Below are positions 8,341-16,256 of a DNA stretch of 58,238 nucleotides, piece after piece. Location: contig MGCU01000019.1 of the NCBI GenBank assembly GCA_001790525.1, positions 1-58,238 on the forward strand, read 5' to 3'. The position numbers and the translations under genes are program-made. The first letter of the stretch is position 1, and every line of letters begins with the position of its first letter. The stretch is from Candidatus Saccharibacteria bacterium RIFCSPHIGHO2_12_FULL_47_16b. Lineage in GTDB: Bacteria; Patescibacteriota; Saccharimonadia; Saccharimonadales; UBA10212. The notes beneath the pieces are model-generated. The model saw only the letters and a program-made list of their open reading frames with translations. It was not told the DNA's origin and ran no database searches.

Positions 8341-9324
8341 TCAGCGAGGCTGTACAGCTTCAGTACGTGTATCAATCGCCTCGAATAGAACATCCAGTTC
8401 GCCCTTTAAATTATTAAATTCGTTGACAATGCTATTAAATTGATTCTCGACTCTCTTGTATTGCGAAAAGAGGGGTCGATATCTTTCAACCATCGCATTA
8501 AAGGCAGGTACACCAGCATTATATTCAGCTGTTTGACCATTACTCTTTAACGAATCAAGGCGCCGACTTTCTTCATCAATTTGAGCACCAAGTGCATTTA
8601 GTTCTGCGATTCTTGAATTAAGTATTGGTTTTAAATCATTAAGCTGGGCGTTGAGTGCATCGAGCTTATCCCTACGACCGCTAAACTCCCCTTCGTAACG
8701 TGTCGAAAAACCGACCACTGCCTGTCGGTCCTTGAAATAGCGTTGGTAATACGTCTCCAGCGGCTGTGGCAGGCTGGCGATTTCGGTGGCGAAAATAGAA
8801 TGCATTTCGTTAATCAGCTCATCCGGTTCGGTCTGTTTGTATAAATTAATGTTTTTTTTGATCCGTTCATCATTAAGCTGATTTTTGTAATAATCTTCTA
8901 TCTGGGCATTAATGTAGGCTTTGTCTTTGACACTTAGACGATCGTAGGCGGCGTGCAGCATCTCGTGAGCAGCTGTAACTTGAGCAATACCAGATAATCT
9001 TTCATCTTTGACGCTATAAACATATACGCCCTGTTGAATGGGCTGATAACAGCCCAGCACAATGGTCTTTTCGCTGATGGTGCATTGAGCACGAAAGTCT
9101 TCAACTTTATCAATTAGCTGCGGCCGATTGACATAAAAGATGTGTTTGGCCTGATCGGTCATTTGGGTATCGGTCGTCAAACTACTGATAGCTGGCGGTG
9201 GATTATAGCCGCGTAGCCGCCACCAATCTAAAATCGCCTGCCGCTGCCAATAAACAACTAGCGGTATCGCCAATATAGCCGCGACCGCCAATAGTTTAAT
9301 TAATCGCTTGAAATAGCCTGACAT
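8341..9324 (-). CDS. membrane-anchored protein with HExxH zinc-metallopeptidase-like motif and C-terminal coiled coil
   Basis: N-terminal TM helix, AAHEMLHAAY, downstream NEMHS, heptad-rich C-terminus. Confidence 0.7.
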   Translation of the reverse strand: MSGYFKRLIKLLAVAAILAIPLVVYWQRQAILDWWRLRGYNPPPAISSLTTDTQMTDQAKHIFYVNRPQLIDKVEDFRAQCTISEKTIVLGCYQPIQQGVYVYSVKDERLSGIAQVTAAHEMLHAAYDRLSVKDKAYINAQIEDYYKNQLNDERIKKNINLYKQTEPDELINEMHSIFATEIASLPQPLETYYQRYFKDRQAVVGFSTRYEGEFSGRRDKLDALNAQLNDLKPILNSRIAELNALGAQIDEESRRLDSLKSNGQTAEYNAGVPAFNAMVERYRPLFSQYKRVENQFNSIVNEFNNLKGELDVLFEAIDTRTEAVQPR

Positions 9325-9409
9325 TAAATATCAGTATAGCAATTAGAGATTTTAATTATCGTTAAGAGTCAACCTAACCTAGATTTGATTTGTGTTATTA
9401 TTTCATTAT

Positions 9410-9691
9410 ATGGGATGGCTTGCCGAAGAGTTTGGATCAATCGATTGGATTGTGCCGGCAGGTCGATGGTGGGATTTAGGACCAGACGATCCAGACCGCG
9501 GGCGGATGATTCTTGTCGATACACAAGCCCATGCCGAATACCCATCATTTCCTTTAGGAAGTGATTACCTTCTAACGCCCGAGAGTGAGGCAAGGTTTAA
9601 AGAAGCAGCTGCAGAGATAATTGCCTGGACTGCAATATTACCACCTTTGACCCAAGAAGATTTCCGAAGAGTTTTTGAAGAAGTAGCCTAA
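9410..9691 (+). CDS. hypothetical protein (cassette 1)
   Basis: ORF 9392..9691; ATG 9410 preferred; stop lies just before repeat R1. Confidence 0.55.
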   Translation: MGWLAEEFGSIDWIVPAGRWWDLGPDDPDRGRMILVDTQAHAEYPSFPLGSDYLLTPESEARFKEAAAEIIAWTAILPPLTQEDFRRVFEEVA

Positions 9692-9693
9692 AT

Positions 9694-9752
9694 AAATCTG
9701 GCGGGCTCCGCCAATTCGGCGGACAAAGTCTATTCCCTCCGCCCCTCCCCGC
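9694..9752 (+). repeat. cassette-boundary repeat R1
   Basis: ctggcgggctccgccaattcggcggacaaagtctattccctccgcccctccccgc; last 34 nt identical to R3. Confidence 0.9.
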
Positions 9753-9761
9753 GTATATTTC

Positions 9762-9798
9762 TTGACATTGTGGCTACATAAAGTGTATGATTTATGTA
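9762..9798 (+). promoter_or_regulatory. sigma70 promoter and operator of the RHH-RelE TA pair
   Basis: TTGACA-18-TATGAT-6-ATG; inverted repeat TACATAAA(9775-82)/TTTATGTA(9791-98) flanks the -10. Confidence 0.7.
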
Positions 9799-10079
9799 TG
9801 AGTAACAATTCTAAAGCCATAAACATTACGTTGCCAGATGAGCTACTAGAGGCAATCGACAAAGCTGCCAAGAGTGAATATGCCAGCCGCAGTGATTTTA
9901 TTCGTGAATCGATTGTTCGTCGCCTAAAAGGCCAGCGAGTGGTTGACGAATGGGGTGATGAAGGTAATTGGGAAACGGTTGTCGATTTTCGAGATTTGCC
10001 AGGGGGTGGAATGCCTGCAGAAGAACTTCTGGAACGCCTAAAACACCTCAATGGACAAGATAAACAAAAACCTTCTTAA
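9798..10079 (+). CDS. CopG/ribbon-helix-helix antitoxin
   Basis: INITLPDELLEAIDKAAK...SRSDFIRESI RHH pattern, acidic C-terminus, overlaps downstream RelE-like gene; start refined from 9762 to ATG 9798. Confidence 0.85.
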   Translation: MSNNSKAINITLPDELLEAIDKAAKSEYASRSDFIRESIVRRLKGQRVVDEWGDEGNWETVVDFRDLPGGGMPAEELLERLKHLNGQDKQKPS

Positions 10080-10293
10080 AATCCCTCTCAAACAAAGGTC
10101 TCAAGTTGAACGTGTTGTTGAGCAGATAGTTAATAATCGGTTAGAAGGTTTAGACTCAAAGAAGATTAAGGGAACAAGCAATGTTTATAGAGTTCGTGTC
10201 GGAAATTACAGAATCATTTTCGCAAAAGAAGCACGGCAAAACATCGTAAGCATGATCAACAAACGCGACGAAAAAACCTACAAAGATTACTGA
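10051..10293 (+). CDS. RelE/ParE family type II toxin
   Basis: Basic 80 aa, KKIKG..NVYRVRVGNYRIIF...KRDEKTYK. Confidence 0.88.
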   Translation: MDKINKNLLKIPLKQRSQVERVVEQIVNNRLEGLDSKKIKGTSNVYRVRVGNYRIIFAKEARQNIVSMINKRDEKTYKDY

Positions 10294-10616
10294 ACCCGGC
10301 GGACACCGCCAATTGGGCGGACAAAGTCTATTCCCCTTCCCCTAATTGGATTTCTATTTGAGCGTTTCGAAAAGAAATTACCCTTGCCGTTAGAGCTTCT
10401 ACAGACATATTTCCTATATCGCCTGCTTCTATGTGCGGCGATTTCCTGTTCATATGCCCTCATATGTTCGCTAAGGAATTTAGGAGAAATTTGCTGTACT
10501 ACCGGGTTAGATGAATCGTAAAAGAAGGATAATCTATTTCTTAAATGTTTAACCCATTCCTGAAGAAGTTCTCCTTCCGTAGTTGAATCAATTCCAGTTT
10601 CTCCAATATATGGCAT
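10287..10616 (-). CDS. hypothetical protein (cassette 3); C-terminus reads through repeat R2
   Basis: TTGTTT-17-TGTAAT-6-ATG upstream; last ~18 aa (RGRGIDFVRPIGGVRRVQ) are translated repeat, so possibly truncated. Confidence 0.5.
   Translation of the reverse strand: MPYIGETGIDSTTEGELLQEWVKHLRNRLSFFYDSSNPVVQQISPKFLSEHMRAYEQEIAAHRSRRYRKYVCRSSNGKGNFFSKRSNRNPIRGRGIDFVRPIGGVRRVQ
10293..10343 (+). repeat. cassette-boundary repeat R2
   Basis: aacccggcggacaccgccaattgggcggacaaagtctattccccttcccct. Confidence 0.88.
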
Positions 10617-10648
10617 CCGCGAATTACACCACTAATTATTAAATCAAA

Positions 10649-10733
10649 CAAGCACGAGCAATTTCAAACCCGGCGGGCTCCCACCTTCGCCAAGGCTTTG
10701 CGGACAAAGTCTATTCCCTCCGCCCCTCCCCGC
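10649..10733 (+). repeat. cassette-boundary repeat R3 (longest copy)
   Basis: caagcacgagcaatttcaaacccggcgggctcccaccttcgccaaggctttgcggacaaagtctattccctccgcccctccccgc; 5' part shared with R5, 3' part with R1. Confidence 0.9.
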
Positions 10734-10746
10734 AACTAATTTGGAC

Positions 10747-11019
10747 TTATTTCCTATAAACTTCGCGTCTATGTTGAACTCTCACGATATAGATCGTTTT
10801 ACCTTCGACAATCAAAATAACTCTGTAATCGCCAATTCGAAAACGATAATCACCAGCTTTATGCTTAGTCAATTTTTCTGCAAATTGCAAAGGGTCGTCA
10901 TGCTCAATAAAATACTCCAGTTTCTTGCCGATTCTACTACGAACCACCGTCGAAAGGCGATTTATATCTTGTTTGGCTGTCTTGGTAATCTTGTAGCTGT
11001 AGCTTCGCGAGGCTGACAT
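10747..11019 (-). CDS. RelE/StbE family type II toxin
   Basis: ITKTAKQDINRL...YRFRIGDYRVI...VRVQHRREVYR. Confidence 0.92.
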   Translation of the reverse strand: MSASRSYSYKITKTAKQDINRLSTVVRSRIGKKLEYFIEHDDPLQFAEKLTKHKAGDYRFRIGDYRVILIVEGKTIYIVRVQHRREVYRK

Positions 11020-11271
11020 TTAGAGATTCCCGAAAACTTCTTCGAAGCTATAGACCTCACCCTTTTTAATTTGTTCTCGCGCTTCAGCAATGGATTCTAG
11101 GTACTTAGGATCACTTGCTGCGAGCAAATCCTCCAGTTTATCCAAATCAACAATAGCTCGCTCTTTTTTACCGCGACGAGTCACAATCAATACTTCATCA
11201 TCTGATATTGAATCCAAAGCATCAGCTAAATTATTACGTAATTTGCTAGCGCTAATTGTTTTTGTTCCCAT
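11020..11271 (-). CDS. Phd/YefM family antitoxin
   Basis: TISASKLRNNL..ALDSI...VLIVTRRGKK; AAGGAGG SD upstream of ATG 11271; abuts toxin start. Confidence 0.9.
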   Translation of the reverse strand: MGTKTISASKLRNNLADALDSISDDEVLIVTRRGKKERAIVDLDKLEDLLAASDPKYLESIAEAREQIKKGEVYSFEEVFGNL

Positions 11272-11280
11272 TTTTTCATT

Positions 11281-11329
11281 CCTCCTTATGTACAAACTAA
11301 TTGTACATTTAATTAGTACGTAATGTCAA
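11281..11329 (-). promoter_or_regulatory. promoter/operator of the Phd-RelE pair
   Basis: TTGACA-18-TACAAT; TGTACA palindromic cores at 11289-94 and 11302-07, the core known from YefM operators; SD AAGGAGG. Confidence 0.75.
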
Positions 11330-11354
11330 GCGGCGGACAGGCTATTCCCTTTCC
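11322..11354 (+). repeat. cassette-boundary repeat R4 (internally deleted)
   Basis: aatgtcaagc-ggcggacag-gctattccctttcc: left end as R5, core as R1/R2. Confidence 0.7.
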
Positions 11355-11373
11355 AAAGTAAACAAAGTTTTAT

Positions 11374-11682
11374 CTACTTAGTTATAAGTAGAGGTATTTT
11401 CGTAGGTGTCAAAAGCTCTTTTGGTATTCGTATTACTGCCGGCTGCAAAGGTTTTTCGTCACAAATAGGCGTAGTGGACTCCCGGCTTTCCCGTCTTATT
11501 TCGTCCATCTGTCCAGCTATTGGTATTAAACAAATTCCAGGAGAAGAGAATGGAACTCGCACAATCTCTGTCCTGCCTCCAAAAGTATAAGCAGACCAGA
11601 AACCAACAACTGATGCTGCTACTGTTCCTAGCGCTCCTATTGCCAAAGTTCTATTTCGTATACCTGGTAAAACTTCTCTCAT
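11374..11682 (-). CDS. small membrane-anchored hypothetical protein (cassette 5)
   Basis: N-terminal hydrophobic helix, two Cys; TTGACA-17-TAAAAT-7-ATG upstream. Confidence 0.6.
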   Translation of the reverse strand: MREVLPGIRNRTLAIGALGTVAASVVGFWSAYTFGGRTEIVRVPFSSPGICLIPIAGQMDEIRRESRESTTPICDEKPLQPAVIRIPKELLTPTKIPLLITK

Positions 11683-11710
11683 TTTTCATATTTTAACCAT
11701 TAATTTATAA

Positions 11711-11783
11711 AATGTCAAGCACGAGCAATTTCAAACCCGGGCGCCAAGGCTATGGTAGACTATGCCACTGGCCCCTCCCCACG
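11711..11783 (+). repeat. cassette-boundary repeat R5
   Basis: aatgtcaagcacgagcaatttcaaacccgggcgccaaggctatggtagactatgccactggcccctccccacg; caagcacgagcaatttcaaacccgg identical to R3. Confidence 0.88.
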
Positions 11784-12338
11784 CTATTTCCTTTCAATCA
11801 CATGATCAGCAAACTTTACTATTGAGCCATCCAAGTCAAAATGATCATTTATATTATCCTCGAGTTTCTCAGCTAAGACTATCAAGTCAGCTAGTTCTTT
11901 CATTGTCTCTTTCAGTTGAGCCTTGAAGCTCTTCTCGTCGAGCTTTATTTCACCTTGCAATATACGGTGAATGTAATCATTTCTCCGATTAACAAAAGGA
12001 GATAGCTTATCCATGAGATCTTTCATAAAATCCTCATTATCATTCGAGAAGAATTTAATGGCTTTTAACTCTTCTTTCAGATTACCGAGCGTGAGATTTT
12101 CAAACCTTCTTTCTGCTATTAAAGTAACTCCTTCCCTGGTGACTGCCGATTTATGACTATAGATTTTTAAGAGAGACGTTTTCAATTTCAATTCAAGGAA
12201 TTGCTCATACACTACAAATATACCTATTAAGCGTACGGTGTTATCTTTCTTTTCGAGAGGCTCGTCTAAGATTCTTTCCAAAAAATCTGCTCGGCTTTTT
12301 GCCTTTTTGATTGCATCAAGGTTGGTTTTATTAGTCAT
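11784..12338 (-). CDS. hypothetical protein, HEPN-like
   Basis: Helical-looking, RRNDYIH (RNxxxH) motif, upstream EQFLE helix and LTLG motif; AT-rich. Confidence 0.6.
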   Translation of the reverse strand: MTNKTNLDAIKKAKSRADFLERILDEPLEKKDNTVRLIGIFVVYEQFLELKLKTSLLKIYSHKSAVTREGVTLIAERRFENLTLGNLKEELKAIKFFSNDNEDFMKDLMDKLSPFVNRRNDYIHRILQGEIKLDEKSFKAQLKETMKELADLIVLAEKLEDNINDHFDLDGSIVKFADHVIERK

Positions 12339-12394
12339 AAGTATATTTTACCTCTAATTGTCCGCTCGTTCCCTTCCAGCGTATAATTCGAACT

Positions 12395-12703
12395 ATGAAT
12401 AATTGGATTGCAGCAGCTGGTGTTTTCGTTGCACTTCTCGGTTTTGTTTATAAAGTTTGGGAGAAGAGCCATAGAAAATTAAAAATCATAAAAGCAGTTT
12501 ATGGTAAGAATAATTTAACTCAAGACATTGCTAAAAATCTCAATAGGAAGATTAAGAATAATAAATTACATGTACAACTTACTAATGAAATTGGGGGAGA
12601 TCCTGCTAAAGGAGAGCGTAAGATTGCCAGAATAAAATATTGGTATGATGGTAAACGCCATAAAGTCGAATACGTTGAACTGGAGATAATTGATCTTCCC
12701 TAA
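12395..12703 (+). CDS. small membrane-anchored protein, DUF3395/lectin-like
   Basis: N-terminal TM; IIKAVYG...DI...GGDPAKGERK.ARIKY pattern; TATAAT-7-ATG. Confidence 0.55.
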   Translation: MNNWIAAAGVFVALLGFVYKVWEKSHRKLKIIKAVYGKNNLTQDIAKNLNRKIKNNKLHVQLTNEIGGDPAKGERKIARIKYWYDGKRHKVEYVELEIIDLP

Positions 12704-12720
12704 ATCGGACTCTCAAAAAC

Positions 12721-12789
12721 AGAGGAAGCGTTTGGGTCCGGGCATCTGGCGAGCCCCAGAAGTAGAACAAGTTCACTACCGGGCAGGCC
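12721..12789 (+). repeat. second-type boundary repeat (blocks shared with 13513-13767)
   Basis: agaggaagcgtttg (also 13754-67), tgggtccgggc (cf. 13513), catctggcgagcccc (cf. 13617), agtag...actac..ggcaggc (cf. 13527-62). Confidence 0.65.
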
Positions 12790-12843
12790 TGATTTGATGT
12801 TGCCGTGCCTGAAGTTCGATGAGATCATATTCTTACGTCTACG

Positions 12844-13512
12844 ATGAGCTATTACCAGAGGTTTGGGCCCGTGCTAAAAACCAGAATCTTTAAACGATAC
12901 CTGCGGTGGGCCTATAAAAAAGGTGCAGAAGATTTAGTCAAGCTCAATTTTAAGCCAGGCTTCAAAAAAGAAGATTTTACGTGCTTACTGTGCGGAGTTG
13001 GCAGTGAGCAAACCGCAAATGAATTTATTAGGTTTGTAACAAACAGAAATCCACGAGCAAAAATTTGGATCATTGATTTGGGTGAAAAACAAGTAACGGC
13101 AGTAAAAAAACTAGTAAAAGAACGGCTTGCCAAGTTCGATGTAAATATAAGAAGAGTCAATGCTCTTGAGCTCAATAAGCTATTGCCGGAAGCCAGTTTG
13201 GATTGGATAGAAACCGATGGTTTCTTAGAATATTTTGACCGTCAGTCTTTAAAAAGACTACTCACTATTTGGCATGGTCTTTTAAATGCCGACGGATTTA
13301 TAACTACCAGAGATTTTGTGAGCAGCAGTAGAATTACCATAACTACTGATGCTTTTAGAATTTGGTTAGCCAAACGTTGGCTTGGTGTTAGTCTGTTTCG
13401 GCACACCAAAAAGGAACTTGTCAGTCTTTTTAAAAGCTCTGGTTTCAATTTTGTGGTGGGTCCGACTCCTTTGCCAACCTACAAAAGGTTTACTCTTGTT
13501 AAGCGCAGTTAA
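12844..13512 (+). CDS. class I SAM-dependent methyltransferase-like protein
   Basis: LLCGVGS motif I variant, WIIDL, LDWIETDGFLEYF, LNADGFI. Confidence 0.7.
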   Translation: MSYYQRFGPVLKTRIFKRYLRWAYKKGAEDLVKLNFKPGFKKEDFTCLLCGVGSEQTANEFIRFVTNRNPRAKIWIIDLGEKQVTAVKKLVKERLAKFDVNIRRVNALELNKLLPEASLDWIETDGFLEYFDRQSLKRLLTIWHGLLNADGFITTRDFVSSSRITITTDAFRIWLAKRWLGVSLFRHTKKELVSLFKSSGFNFVVGPTPLPTYKRFTLVKRS

Positions 13513-13630
13513 TGGGTTCGGGCCGCAGTAGTATCCGCCTGAGGCGGAACTACACGGCAGGCATTAGCCGGAAAACAGATGAATTAAAGATAAAGCGAGT
13601 CCCTAACTTGCGAAAACATCTGACGAGACC

Positions 13631-13757
13631 CGAGTAGATGTTGTTGAAAAGAGGCGACCTTGGGTGCGAGAGCTGTTTGACGAACAAAGCTGCCGGTGGC
13701 AAGTTTGTGAGGAGTTCTCGAGCAAGCCTGTTTCCAACAACAGCTACATCGAGTAGA
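13631..13757 (+). repeat. long imperfect palindromic element flanked by CGAGTAGA direct repeat
   Basis: gtagatgttgttgaaaa/tttccaacaacagctac outer stem, cgagagct/agttctcg and tgcc/ggca inner stems; CGAGTAGA at 13631 and 13750. Confidence 0.7.
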
Positions 13758-13787
13758 GGAAGCGTTTGAGGAAGGTAGGGGCGAGTG

Positions 13788-16256
13788 CTACTCGGTGGTG
13801 GCGGCGTAGGTTAGTTCTTTGGCTTTGGCACCGACGGTTACCACATCGCCTTTTTGGTAGGATTCATCCAGCATGCCGGCGGCAATTGAATCTTCCAGTG
13901 TTTCCTGTAACAGCCGGCGCATTGGCCGAGCACCGTTTTTAGCGTCATAACCTTCTTTTAGCAGATATTCTTTGGCATCTTTACTTACTTCCAGACCAAG
14001 GCCTTTTTTAACCAAACGGGCCCGCAGATCATCAAGCTGTATGTCTAAAATCTTGAGGGCATCTTTTTTAGTCAAAGCCCTAAACACTACAATTTTGTCA
14101 ATCCGGTTAAGCAGTTCCGGCCGCATCATCCTCTTAAGTTCGTCCAGAACTTTTTTCTTGTTAGCGTTATGCAATTCATCCAGTTTTTCTGTATCGGTCG
14201 CGCTAAAGCCAAAGCTAGCTTCTTTTTGCAACTTCTCCGCTCCAATATTAGAAGTCATAATCACAATCGTGTTGGTAAAATCAATCTTACGGCCCTTAGC
14301 ATCAGTTAACGAACCATCTTCCAGAATTTGCAGCAGCATGTTAAAGACGTCCGGATGGGCTTTTTCGATTTCATCAAACAGCACTACCGAATAAGGGTGA
14401 TGGCGGATTTTATCAGTTAATTGGCCGCTGTCATCATAGCCAACGTAGCCGGGCGGCGCGCCGACTAAACGTGCAACAGTGTGATGCTCGCCAAATTCAC
14501 TCATATCAATTTTGACCAGCGCTTCATCTGAACCAAAGAATTCGCGGGCTAACACCCGGGCTAGTTCAGTCTTGCCAACGCCGGTTGGTCCCATGAAAAT
14601 AAATGAGCCGATCGGGCGCTTTTCGCTGGAGATACCAGAGCGGCTACGCCGCACGGCGCTGGCTACCGTTTTGACAGCCTCGTCTTGGCCAATAATGTAG
14701 CGGCCCAGATTTTTTTCTAAATTAATCAGATATTTGGCTTCGGAACGAATAACTTTAGCTACCGGAATGCTGGTTATGCGCGCCACGGTTTGGGCCACAT
14801 CATCGGAAGTTATCGGAATTGGTTTGCCGGTTTTGTGAGTCGCTTCCAGCTGTTTAATTTGCTCTTTTAGCTGGCTGGCTTTTTGTTTTTCGCGGGCAGC
14901 TTTTTCATAATCCTCGTTATCAACGGCTTCATCAATCCGACCGTTGACTAGCTTCAGTTCTTTTTGCAAGGAACGCATCTCCGGCGGAGTTTTGCCCTTA
15001 TTGACCCGTAAATAAGCGGCTGTTTCATCTAAAAGGTCAATCGCTTTATCCGGCATAAAACGATCAACGATGTAGCGTCGGGCAAACTGAACGGTATCAC
15101 TTAAAACCTCGTCATTGAATTTAACGCCGTGGAATTCTTCGTAGTAAGAACTCAAGCCTTTTAAGATAGCCAGCGTTTCGGGTGAGGTTGTTTCGGGCAC
15201 TTGAATGGGCTGGAAGCGTCGCTCTAAGGCGGCGTCTTTTTCAACGTAGCGGGTGTAATCATCGGTAGTTGTGGCGCCGATCATCTGGATGCGACCGCGG
15301 GCCAGTGATGGCTTGAGGATATTGCCGGCATCCATGCTGCCCTCGGCGGCGCCAGCGCCAACAATCAAGTGCAGCTCATCAATAAAGATAATTAGGTTTT
15401 TGTCATTTTCCAGCTCGGTAATAACCTTCTTGAGACGGTCTTCAAACTCACCGCGGTATTTGGTGCCGGCAATCATGCCAGCCAAATCCAGCATAATGAT
15501 GCGTTTATCAAGCAGGCTATCGGGTACTTCCTCTTTGACGATACGTTGAGCGATGCCTTCGACGATGGCGGTTTTACCAACCCCCGGCTCGCCAATCAAA
15601 ACCGGATTATTTTTAGTCCGGCGGTTAAGAATGGTGATAACTCTTTTAATTTGGGCCTCGCGACCAACCACCGGGTCCAGTTTGCCGTCGCGGGCCATCT
15701 GCGTCATATCAGTGCCAAAAAATTCCAAAGCCGATTTTTTACCGCGCTTGCCACGCTGGCCAGCTGCCACACCGCCGCGACCTTCTTCATATTGCTGTCG
15801 GTTAAGAAACTGCTCAACTTCGCCGCTTAGCCGGTCAAGATCAATGCCCATATCGCGCAGCAGCGTCGTAGCCCGGGCGTTCTTTTGGCTCAAGATGCTG
15901 TATAAAATGTGCTCGGTGCCGCAGACATCCTGATTAAATTCCTGGGCAATTTCCCAAGCCATCTTAAGTGTTAATTTAGCGGTTTCGGATAGCCCTTTGC
16001 CGCCCATGCTAATAATCAAGGTTTTTGGAGTTAGATTAAGCGCTAAGCGGGCTCGATCTAAGGTAATGCCCTGTTCTTCTAAAATTTTGGCGGCCATTGA
16101 ACCATTTTGGGCCAGCAGTCCTAAAAGTAGGTGTTCAGTGCCGATGTAGGCGCTACCGGATGCTCTGGCGATGGCATCGGCATGACGCAAACTTTGAAGT
16201 GCGTTGTTAGTTAAATGGCTCAAAAAATCTTGGAAATCTGGCGAATTTGGAATCAA
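13788..16256 (-). CDS. clpC: ATP-dependent Clp protease ATP-binding subunit ClpC
   Basis: Clp N repeats, GEPGVGKT and GPTGVGKT Walker A motifs, short UVR middle domain, FGF ClpP-docking loop; TTG start with AGGAG SD. Confidence 0.95.

Follow-up and report, generated by a model that had tools for sequence, protein, structure and literature searches.

The contig MGCU01000019.1 of Candidatus Saccharibacteria bacterium RIFCSPHIGHO2_12_FULL_47_16b, analysed here over its whole length of 58,238 nt (hereafter the window), carries, between clpC and a gene encoding a protein of 327 aa, an array of eight small units, each of which holds one gene or one toxin-antitoxin (TA) pair, together with short, GC-rich repeats that all lie in the same orientation. 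The right flank of the array is clpC itself (13788-16256, minus strand; Pfam AAA_2, Clp_N and ClpB_D2-small). Its left flank is the 327-aa gene (8341-9324, minus strand), whose product belongs to no Pfam family, which is present in 46 of 49 genomes of the family and which adjoins clpC in most of them. The window corresponds to contig C19 of the study genome, G000 (794 kb, 29 contigs, 95% complete). It is compared to these 49 family genomes, including a congener, G001, and two members of a second genus, G070 and G072; in addition, 30 loci of the family around the 327-aa gene were surveyed, and 401 genomes of the order were used for a wider search for the core of the repeats. The G+C content of the array is 40.9%, against 46.0% for the window, and that of the repeats is 55-64%.

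The units, referred to below as cassettes, are of modest size and mostly of unrecognised content. Cassette 1 (9410-9691, plus strand) is a 93-aa open reading frame (ORF), or 99 aa from a GTG at 9392, with no family. Cassette 2 (9762-10293, plus strand) starts with a promoter-like sequence (9762-9791), followed by a ribbon-helix-helix (RHH) antitoxin gene (9798-10079; RHH_1, 2e-8) and a ParE-family toxin gene (10051-10293; ParE_toxin, 3e-5). Cassette 3 (10344-10616, minus strand) is a small ORF with no family; the listed frame, 10287-10616, stays open through the adjacent repeat and overlaps the stop codon of the ParE gene, and its last ~19 codons are probably not real coding sequence. Cassette 4 (10747-11329, minus strand) is composed of a second ParE-family toxin gene (10747-11019; ParE_toxin, 2.6e-8) and a Phd/YefM antitoxin gene (11020-11295; PhdYeFM, 5.2e-11), with a promoter-like sequence at 11329-11300. 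All four Pfam matches are above the cut-offs, and the array thus contains two type II TA pairs, of known families and made of adjacent small genes. Cassette 5 (11374-11718, minus strand) comprises a 102-aa ORF (11374-11682) and a promoter-like sequence (11718-11690), the -10 box of which ends 7 nt before the ATG. Cassette 6 (11784-12338, minus strand) is a 184-aa ORF with no family above threshold, cassette 7 (12395-12703, plus strand) is a 102-aa ORF with a single weak match, below cut-off, to DnaJ-like_C11_C, and cassette 8 (12844-13512, plus strand) is a methyltransferase-like ORF of 222 aa (Methyltransf_25, E 0.0016, below cut-off).

Four units are thus oriented each way in the window; in the array of G072, eight face one way and three the other, by reading. 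The organisation proposed in a preliminary description of this DNA, with one gene or one TA pair between successive repeats, is borne out: the RHH-ParE pair is on the plus strand, the Phd-ParE pair on the minus strand, and single ORFs are found elsewhere. The same holds for its statement that stop codons fall 0-20 nt from a repeat, as the genes end 0-19 nt away. On the plus strand, the stops at 9691 and 10293 lie 2 and 0 nt before a repeat; on the minus strand, those at 10747, 11374 and 11784 lie 13, 19 and 0 nt after one. The cargo is highly diverse: in a set of 112 ORFs taken from 12 array regions, 99 lack a relative within the set, and a PADLOC search with 10 cassette proteins gave nothing better than E 0.006. 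As a side observation, the clpC array of G001 (L021 10918-12354) encodes a 478-aa HATPase_c_3 protein, of the MORC/paraMORC-like ATPase kind, beside a DUF6309 protein; this cassette could be defence-type cargo.

Five related repeats in one orientation had been described between these units, and a repeat search recovers all five within the same limits, on the plus strand. Site 1 (9694-9752) is a long form, composed of a left arm, a CCGCC-N5-GGCGG hairpin insert and a right arm ending in CCCCGC. Site 2 (10293-10343) is 88% identical to it over 43 nt (9695-9737 and 10293-10335), with a decayed right arm. Site 3 (10649-10733) is the longest copy, with a left extension, a left arm, a 30-nt insert and a right arm, and shares 34 perfectly identical nucleotides with site 1 (9719-9752 and 10700-10733); 10317-10350 and 11749-11782 match this stretch at 68% and 62%. 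Site 4 (11322-11354) is truncated and represents a shortened fourth copy, with 16 nt that are 88% identical to site 2 (10325-10340 and 11339-11354). The left 25 nt of site 5 (11711-11783) are 100% identical to those of site 3 (10649-10673 and 11716-11740), and its right part has diverged. A site alignment adds a sixth copy that had not been listed, site 6 (12359-12383, plus strand), which is decayed and merges into a TATAAT ending at 12387, 7 nt before the next ATG. According to shuffles, these similarities are far beyond expectation: a 19-nt right-hand motif occurs three times in the window, against 0.01 expected, and a 25-nt left-hand motif twice, against 0.

The alignment of 24 sites from five genomes shows that the site is ~30-45 bp long and asymmetric, with a G-rich left arm, a core, GGGCTCTATTCC, and a pyrimidine-rich right arm that often ends in CCCCGC. 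Within it, TCT never varies and GGC..A reaches at least 90% conservation. A sequence model of these 24 sites, R1, gives 37 matches in 14 sources, 24 of the 37 being the training sequences. In the window, its two matches are both inside the array (9729-9757 in site 1 and 10710-10736 in site 3), and site 6 is below its threshold. Nine loci hold two or more matches, 34 in all, and in each of these loci all the matches are on one strand, with genes facing both ways. None of the six sites of the window has a RYYYAAC or GTTRRRY motif within +/-15 nt on either strand, as had been noted previously.

The preliminary description had also presented the repeats as a composite with a variable hairpin, and this is only true in part. 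When eight sites are folded as single-stranded DNA, site 1 folds better than its shuffles (z -2.28), but the other seven do not (z -0.90 to +0.53, all above -1), so that a variable hairpin is not a general feature of the family. The hairpin inserts of sites 1, 2 and 3 nevertheless share a single insertion point in the core. The insert of site 3 (10681-10707) carries a short hairpin motif centred on CTTCGCCAAGGCTT, which recurs in intergenic DNA of other genera of the family (L003 in G021, L004 in G031 and L008 in G032) and may be a tiny mobile hairpin that landed in the core of the site.

Promoter-like hexamers abut four of the six sites of the window. Upstream of cassettes 2 and 4, they read TTGACA-18-TATGAT and TTGACA-18-TACAAT, each with a match of 11 out of 12, and TTGTCC-18-TATAAT is found upstream of cassette 7 (12358-12387). 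After the right arm of a site comes either a TATAAT, 6-7 nt upstream of the following ATG, or a -35 box of the TTGCAA type. Many cassettes have their -10 box only 6-7 nt before the ATG and no Shine-Dalgarno sequence (9786-9800, 11682-11695 and 12382-12397 in the window; also locus L038), which suggests, from sequence, that their transcripts are leaderless.

The repeats are restricted to few places. In G000, BLAST with the repeat gives strong matches in the array of C19 only, and motif scans add diverged copies on two other contigs (C9:7512-8563 and C10:43440-43545). Far from being scattered over the genome, the family is thus found at three loci, which indicates that it is not dispersed. In G001, further copies lie on two other contigs. 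The right-arm pattern is present in four of the 49 family genomes (control, 0-1), two of which, G070 and G072, belong to the other genus; a wider scan of contigs with a 21-nt right-arm pattern returns G001 and G072 only, and G072 has at least 12 sites in a row. With R1 at E <=0.1, matches are found in 16 of the 49 genomes, and they form clusters of 4-9 in G001, G029, G035, G012, G070 and G072. At the level of the order, the exact 12-nt core occurs in 16 of 401 genomes against 12 matches for the reversed control (our own count), which is the chance level, with the exception of G029, where two cores lie 1.1 kb apart. Finally, G000 has a cassette array downstream of tRNA-Tyr on another contig (C23:33800-35700, minus strand), with a different junction repeat; this genome therefore holds at least two site families.

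A comparison of the 30 loci shows that the interval next to clpC is a hotspot, in agreement with the preliminary description. The distance between the clpC stop and the start of the 327-aa gene is 15-104 nt in 21 loci and 187-712 nt in three, one of which contains a single cassette and another an element of a second repeat family only (see below). In the remaining six (G000, G001, G070, G072, G008 and one locus truncated at the end of its contig), clpC is not within reach. The interval measures 3.2 kb in G008, where the sites are degenerate, 3.7 kb in G070 and ~7.7 kb in G072. As the gap is tight in most relatives, the array is an insertion into a cluster formed by clpC, the 327-aa gene and radA. 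The flanks of G001 are 77-80% identical to those of G000, and the 6-kb interior shares the repeats only. The occupied loci thus contain unrelated genes, and cassettes have turned over at this interval; the relatives have not retained the same genes. The array is not an assembly artefact either, as independent assemblies have the same architecture and contigs from another study show 0 differences.

The sites are not evenly distributed along the interval. The first site lies directly against the promoter region of the 327-aa gene in G001, G070, G072 and G008; such a site is missing in this window. In all four arrays at the clpC locus, the scoring sites lie towards the 327-aa gene, and 1.4-3.6 kb next to clpC have none. 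This skew suggests that cassettes enter at the 327-aa end and that sites decay with age.

The clpC side is occupied by other elements. The region described previously reaches 13787, and one correction applies to it: in the last 1.1 kb, the repeats (12704-12843 and 13513-13787) belong to a different family. Element E1 (12704-12843, plus strand) is GC-rich and not a junction site; its part 12733-12802 is 84.5% identical (71 nt) to the clpC-side region of G070, with a partial counterpart in G001, and in G027 the entire 319-nt gap next to clpC is an E1-related element. An exact 14-nt direct repeat (12721-12734 and 13755-13768), with two occurrences in the genome against 0.01 expected, brackets the methyltransferase-like cassette. 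Element E2 (13513-13787, plus strand), also not a junction site, is a copy of a dispersed, structured-looking repeat of ~130-160 nt, GC-rich, represented in the window especially by 13628-13785, next to the clpC stop. Positions 116-273 of E2 have at least six further copies, on other contigs of G000, at 74-82% (C15:12297-12423, C7:163-321, C8:21952-22097, C4:1547-1675, C22:4709-4871 and C25:50496-50638), and another copy is found in a G063 locus. Neither element has an Rfam match: at gathering thresholds, there is none in the window, nor in the array loci of G001 and G070, and matches in 9000-14000 at E <=10 are at chance level. The region 12704-13787 was considered as a possible RNase P RNA or transfer-messenger RNA (tmRNA) and rejected as either, as the tmRNA gene is on contig C20 and RF00010, the bacterial RNase P RNA model, has no match in the 95%-complete G000. 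The tmRNA gene of C20 is seen by Rfam and overlooked by ARAGORN.

The limits of the cassettes could be placed by comparing related copies. G072 contains two copies of one 0.7-kb cassette (94% identity), separated by two other cassettes; the homology begins at GCTATTCC in the left site and ends at CGGGCT in the right one. A cassette on contig C9 of G000 is 70% identical to one in the clpC array of G001, the homology being lost at the core, and in the C9 copy 43 nt are inserted precisely at the boundary of GGGCTC and CTATTCC. Sharing also extends across genera: G001 (C3) and G070 have a TA cassette in common, flanked on the left by a site. The G070 array also contains a relative of the window's Phd gene, 67% identical and oriented like it with respect to the sites.

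Logan contigs from public sequencing runs reproduce the cassettes, one run of another study covering 10704-13608 with 0 differences, and they break at the repeats. Four joints among these contigs (9755>13619, 10339>10670, 10697>11754 and 11352>13523) were rejected as signs of excision, as they have 21-34 letters on their shorter side and are explained by paralogous loci. A fifth one (13649>12706, with 16 letters between) was rejected too, as it corresponds to the arrangement of a paralogous locus, on C12 of G001. A metagenome scan with the 327-aa protein returned four loci and no usable strain variant.

To get insights on what the site resembles, its matrix was compared to the tRNAs of G000. 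In 31 of the 43 tRNAs, the best match is located at the same place, 30 nt from the 3' end, and the mean best score, -1.46, is reached by none of 300 column-shuffled matrices (-8.35 +/- 1.61). In this register, the left-arm GCGGG falls on the T-stem, the 7-nt centre on the T-loop and the right-arm CCC again on the T-stem. Judged on sequence, the site thus appears to resemble the T-arm and acceptor strand of a tRNA. It is a copy of no single tRNA of G000, the best being Ser-GGA (12.0 bits) and Gly-TCC (11.4 bits); the genes of these two were rejected as anchors, as no array lies downstream of either, and neither the window nor 11 array loci of six relatives contain a tRNA gene. In tyrosine integrases that target tRNA genes, the crossover takes place in the T-loop and the T-stem provides the binding arms.

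All these features, namely the layout, the co-orientation of the sites, their confinement, the turnover of the cassettes and their boundaries at one point of the T-arm-like core, fit with site-specific accretion by a recombinase acting in trans, and this is the explanation towards which we lean, with modest confidence, the mechanism being what we infer from them. The array would be made of about eight mobile cassettes, each with a single gene or a TA pair, accreted between clpC and the 327-aa gene, and each cassette would be bounded by half of a short, asymmetric site of the recombination type. The core of this site would imitate the T-arm of a tRNA, with five G/C pairs around the equivalent of a 7-nt loop, and the cassette boundaries would fall inside this loop equivalent. 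A recombinase encoded elsewhere would both insert and remove cassettes at the site; candidates are the single Xer-like tyrosine recombinase of G000 or an enzyme brought by a transient element. New cassettes would enter at the end of the 327-aa gene, and older sites would decay towards clpC.

The search for such an enzyme was carried out with several models. In accordance with the preliminary description, the window is free of recombinases, as contig C19 has no Phage_integrase, Resolvase or Y1_Tnp match. The tyrosine recombinase encoded on contig C24 is Xer-like: it scores 239 bits with a XerA-type model (cut-off 220) and 135 bits with an integron-integrase model (cut-off 265). A profile search finds no IntI in G000, and no site lies near its Xer gene. 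The three Y1_Tnp matches of G000 are all outside C19. In G012, the immediate neighbour of an array of this site family (L073, G012:C1 ~765.0-767.0 kb) is an IS605-like unit, which encodes a 206-aa Y1 transposase and has an ORF of 440 aa where tnpB would be expected.

Several results weigh against accretion by a recombinase. As regards the enzyme, (i) no recombinase is linked to the array, the sole Phage_integrase match of G000 being that on C24; (ii) the Resolvase family has no match in this 95%-complete genome; (iii) G001, G070 and G072 each have one or two tyrosine recombinases, located on other contigs; (iv) the 10 largest array-region ORFs tested have no recombinase domain; and (v) HUH transposases had to be rejected as the enzyme of the arrays, since Y1 is found in 13 of the 49 family genomes and is missing from G070 and G029, which bear arrays, and the perfect GTTTCCAAGG...CCTTGGAAAC hairpins that bracket the IS605-like unit of G012 are unrelated to the sites. 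As regards the site, its dyad symmetry is weak, which is unusual among the core sites of tyrosine recombinases, and many right arms are like CCTTTCC and do not fold. Moreover, conservation continues beyond the core as far as the promoter, which could be explained by the shared descent of a promoter module. As regards mobility, the empty loci of other genera have no pre-existing site at the insertion point, and neither an excised circle nor strain-level gain or loss is seen in the public-run contigs. No viral contig bearing a site was found: in 31 and 3 stretches with the core pattern, the R1 matches (at most 18 bits) extend barely beyond the seeded pattern and are at chance level, and thus no donor phage or plasmid was found.

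The main alternative is an exchange without any recombinase. After natural transformation, cassettes could be exchanged, duplicated and lost by homologous, homology-facilitated or RecA-independent events, with the junction-promoter modules serving as portable homology arms and gene conversion keeping the repeats alike. That the conservation continues to the -10 box and the start codon in many cassettes, that copies in the same genome share stretches of 25-34 nt with up to 100% identity, and that no enzyme was found and many sites are weakly symmetric would all be accounted for. Natural competence has moreover been reported for Saccharibacteria (PMC10187176), as has, for an integrase-less island of E. 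coli, RecA-independent deletion between short direct repeats (PMC5426353). However, sites that belong to different cassettes have short (~12-35 nt) and frequently broken homology, and in the three cassette pairs and the long-form sites examined, the boundaries and small inserts coincide at a single point of the core. Homology arms that double as promoters would not need a strict co-orientation, and the junction is not a copy of the clpC end. We consider this exchange unlikely.

Alternatively, the repeats could have no role in DNA movement and represent expression punctuation (an insulator, a terminator, a promoter or a 3'-UTR RNA motif) that travels with genes, the array having been built by unrelated insertions. 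The hexamers next to four of the six window sites would then be expected, site 1 contains a terminator-like hairpin on the minus strand, and the likeness to a T-arm could reflect a signal for RNA processing or stability. Such punctuation is nevertheless at odds with the fixed orientation of the sites, the same strand being the 3' trailer of some genes and lying upstream of the promoter of others. Seven of the eight sites have no stable fold, the hairpins of the plus strand have no T-run, no Rfam match is obtained, and the end of cassette homology inside the core is left unexplained, which makes this alternative improbable. Selfish elements of the REP/REPIN (repetitive extragenic palindromic) or MITE (miniature inverted-repeat transposable element) type, moved by the HUH (Y1) transposases of the genome and piling up in a permissive region, are very improbable: even though G000 has three Y1_Tnp matches and the hairpin of the site 3 insert recurs in G021, G031 and G032, the copies are co-oriented and confined to three loci, with none elsewhere in the window, they have neither terminal inverted repeats nor target duplications, the arrays of G070 and G029 exist without Y1_Tnp, and the neighbouring IS605-like element has different hairpins. 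Both these last readings fit the orientation and distribution of the sites poorly.

Accretion of cassettes at a common site recalls several known systems. Integrons, and the clusters of attC sites lacking integron-integrases (CALINs), are the closest in layout, with a row of mostly single-gene cassettes, a diverse and mostly unknown cargo, interspersed TA pairs with their own promoters, one co-oriented junction site per cassette, boundaries inside the site and a site similarity that is highest within a lineage; like a CALIN, the array has no adjacent integrase. It differs from them in having no R''/R' motifs (0/6 sites), no folded hairpin and no IntI in the genome. Its sites are also shorter (~30-45 bp, attC sites being 57-141 bp), most of its cassettes are self-promoted and half of the units of the window are reversed.

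A second likeness is to islands that grow at tRNA genes. In streptococci, the cis-mobilizable elements called CIMEs accrete in tandem at tRNA-type attachment sites. With the tycheposons of Prochlorococcus and their remnants, repeated integration at one site pushes older units along the island and leaves partial-tRNA att repeats (10.1101/2020.12.28.424599). The T-arm-like site and the decay of older sites with the distance from one end are reminiscent of both. Nevertheless, the present array has no tRNA anchor, its units are far smaller (0.3-1 kb, one gene each), and the loci retrieved include no member of the family that carries an integrase. The array of C23 does follow a tRNA-Tyr gene, whereas that of C19, with its different repeat, lies between two protein genes.

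The pdif modules of Acinetobacter plasmids, which often carry TA pairs, are Xer-dependent, and the chromosomal recombinase is thought to act on them in trans; their sites are 28-bp look-alikes of dif, with an 11-6-11 dyad symmetry and alternating orientations. Small modules that are often TA pairs, short sites and an Xer-like enzyme as the only tyrosine recombinase of G000 bring the array close to them. In contrast, the sites described here are asymmetric and all co-oriented, and their alignment shows a G-rich left arm and a pyrimidine-rich right arm with weak symmetry, unlike two inverted 11-bp arms. As the site is absent from 33 of the 49 family genomes and Xer is probably universal, the site is not the chromosomal dif. 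Lastly, the minimal mobile elements of Neisseria lack junction repeats in their interior, and their movement relies on homologous recombination in the flanking genes. They share with the array a fixed interval between conserved genes that holds different genes in each genome, but here each gene has its own junction site.

Bacteria of the candidate phyla radiation (CPR) have tiny, streamlined genomes with few recognisable mobile elements, which raises the question of how they acquire accessory genes. A literature search, which covered main texts, yielded no account of arrays of this kind in Saccharibacteria or Patescibacteria. One possibility, which we put forward tentatively and with less confidence than the accretion itself, is that Saccharibacteria, and perhaps the CPR more widely, own a capture system analogous to integrons, in which the sites imitate the T-arm and acceptor ends of tRNAs, the enzyme is a moonlighting Xer-type or an unrecognised recombinase, arrays are not tied to tRNA genes and can be seeded between ordinary housekeeping genes, as at this locus, and cassettes move between arrays and genera. 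Here, turnover of the cassettes is complete from one species to another of the same genus, and cassettes recur across genera and across loci. A site of ~30-45 bp with a defined crossover point is moreover a precise and testable substrate. Should an unknown protein or the single Xer-type recombinase turn out to be the enzyme, the range of known cassette systems would widen past integrons, and a compact array of self-expressed, single-gene cassettes would give these epibionts a simple route to gain and exchange genes.

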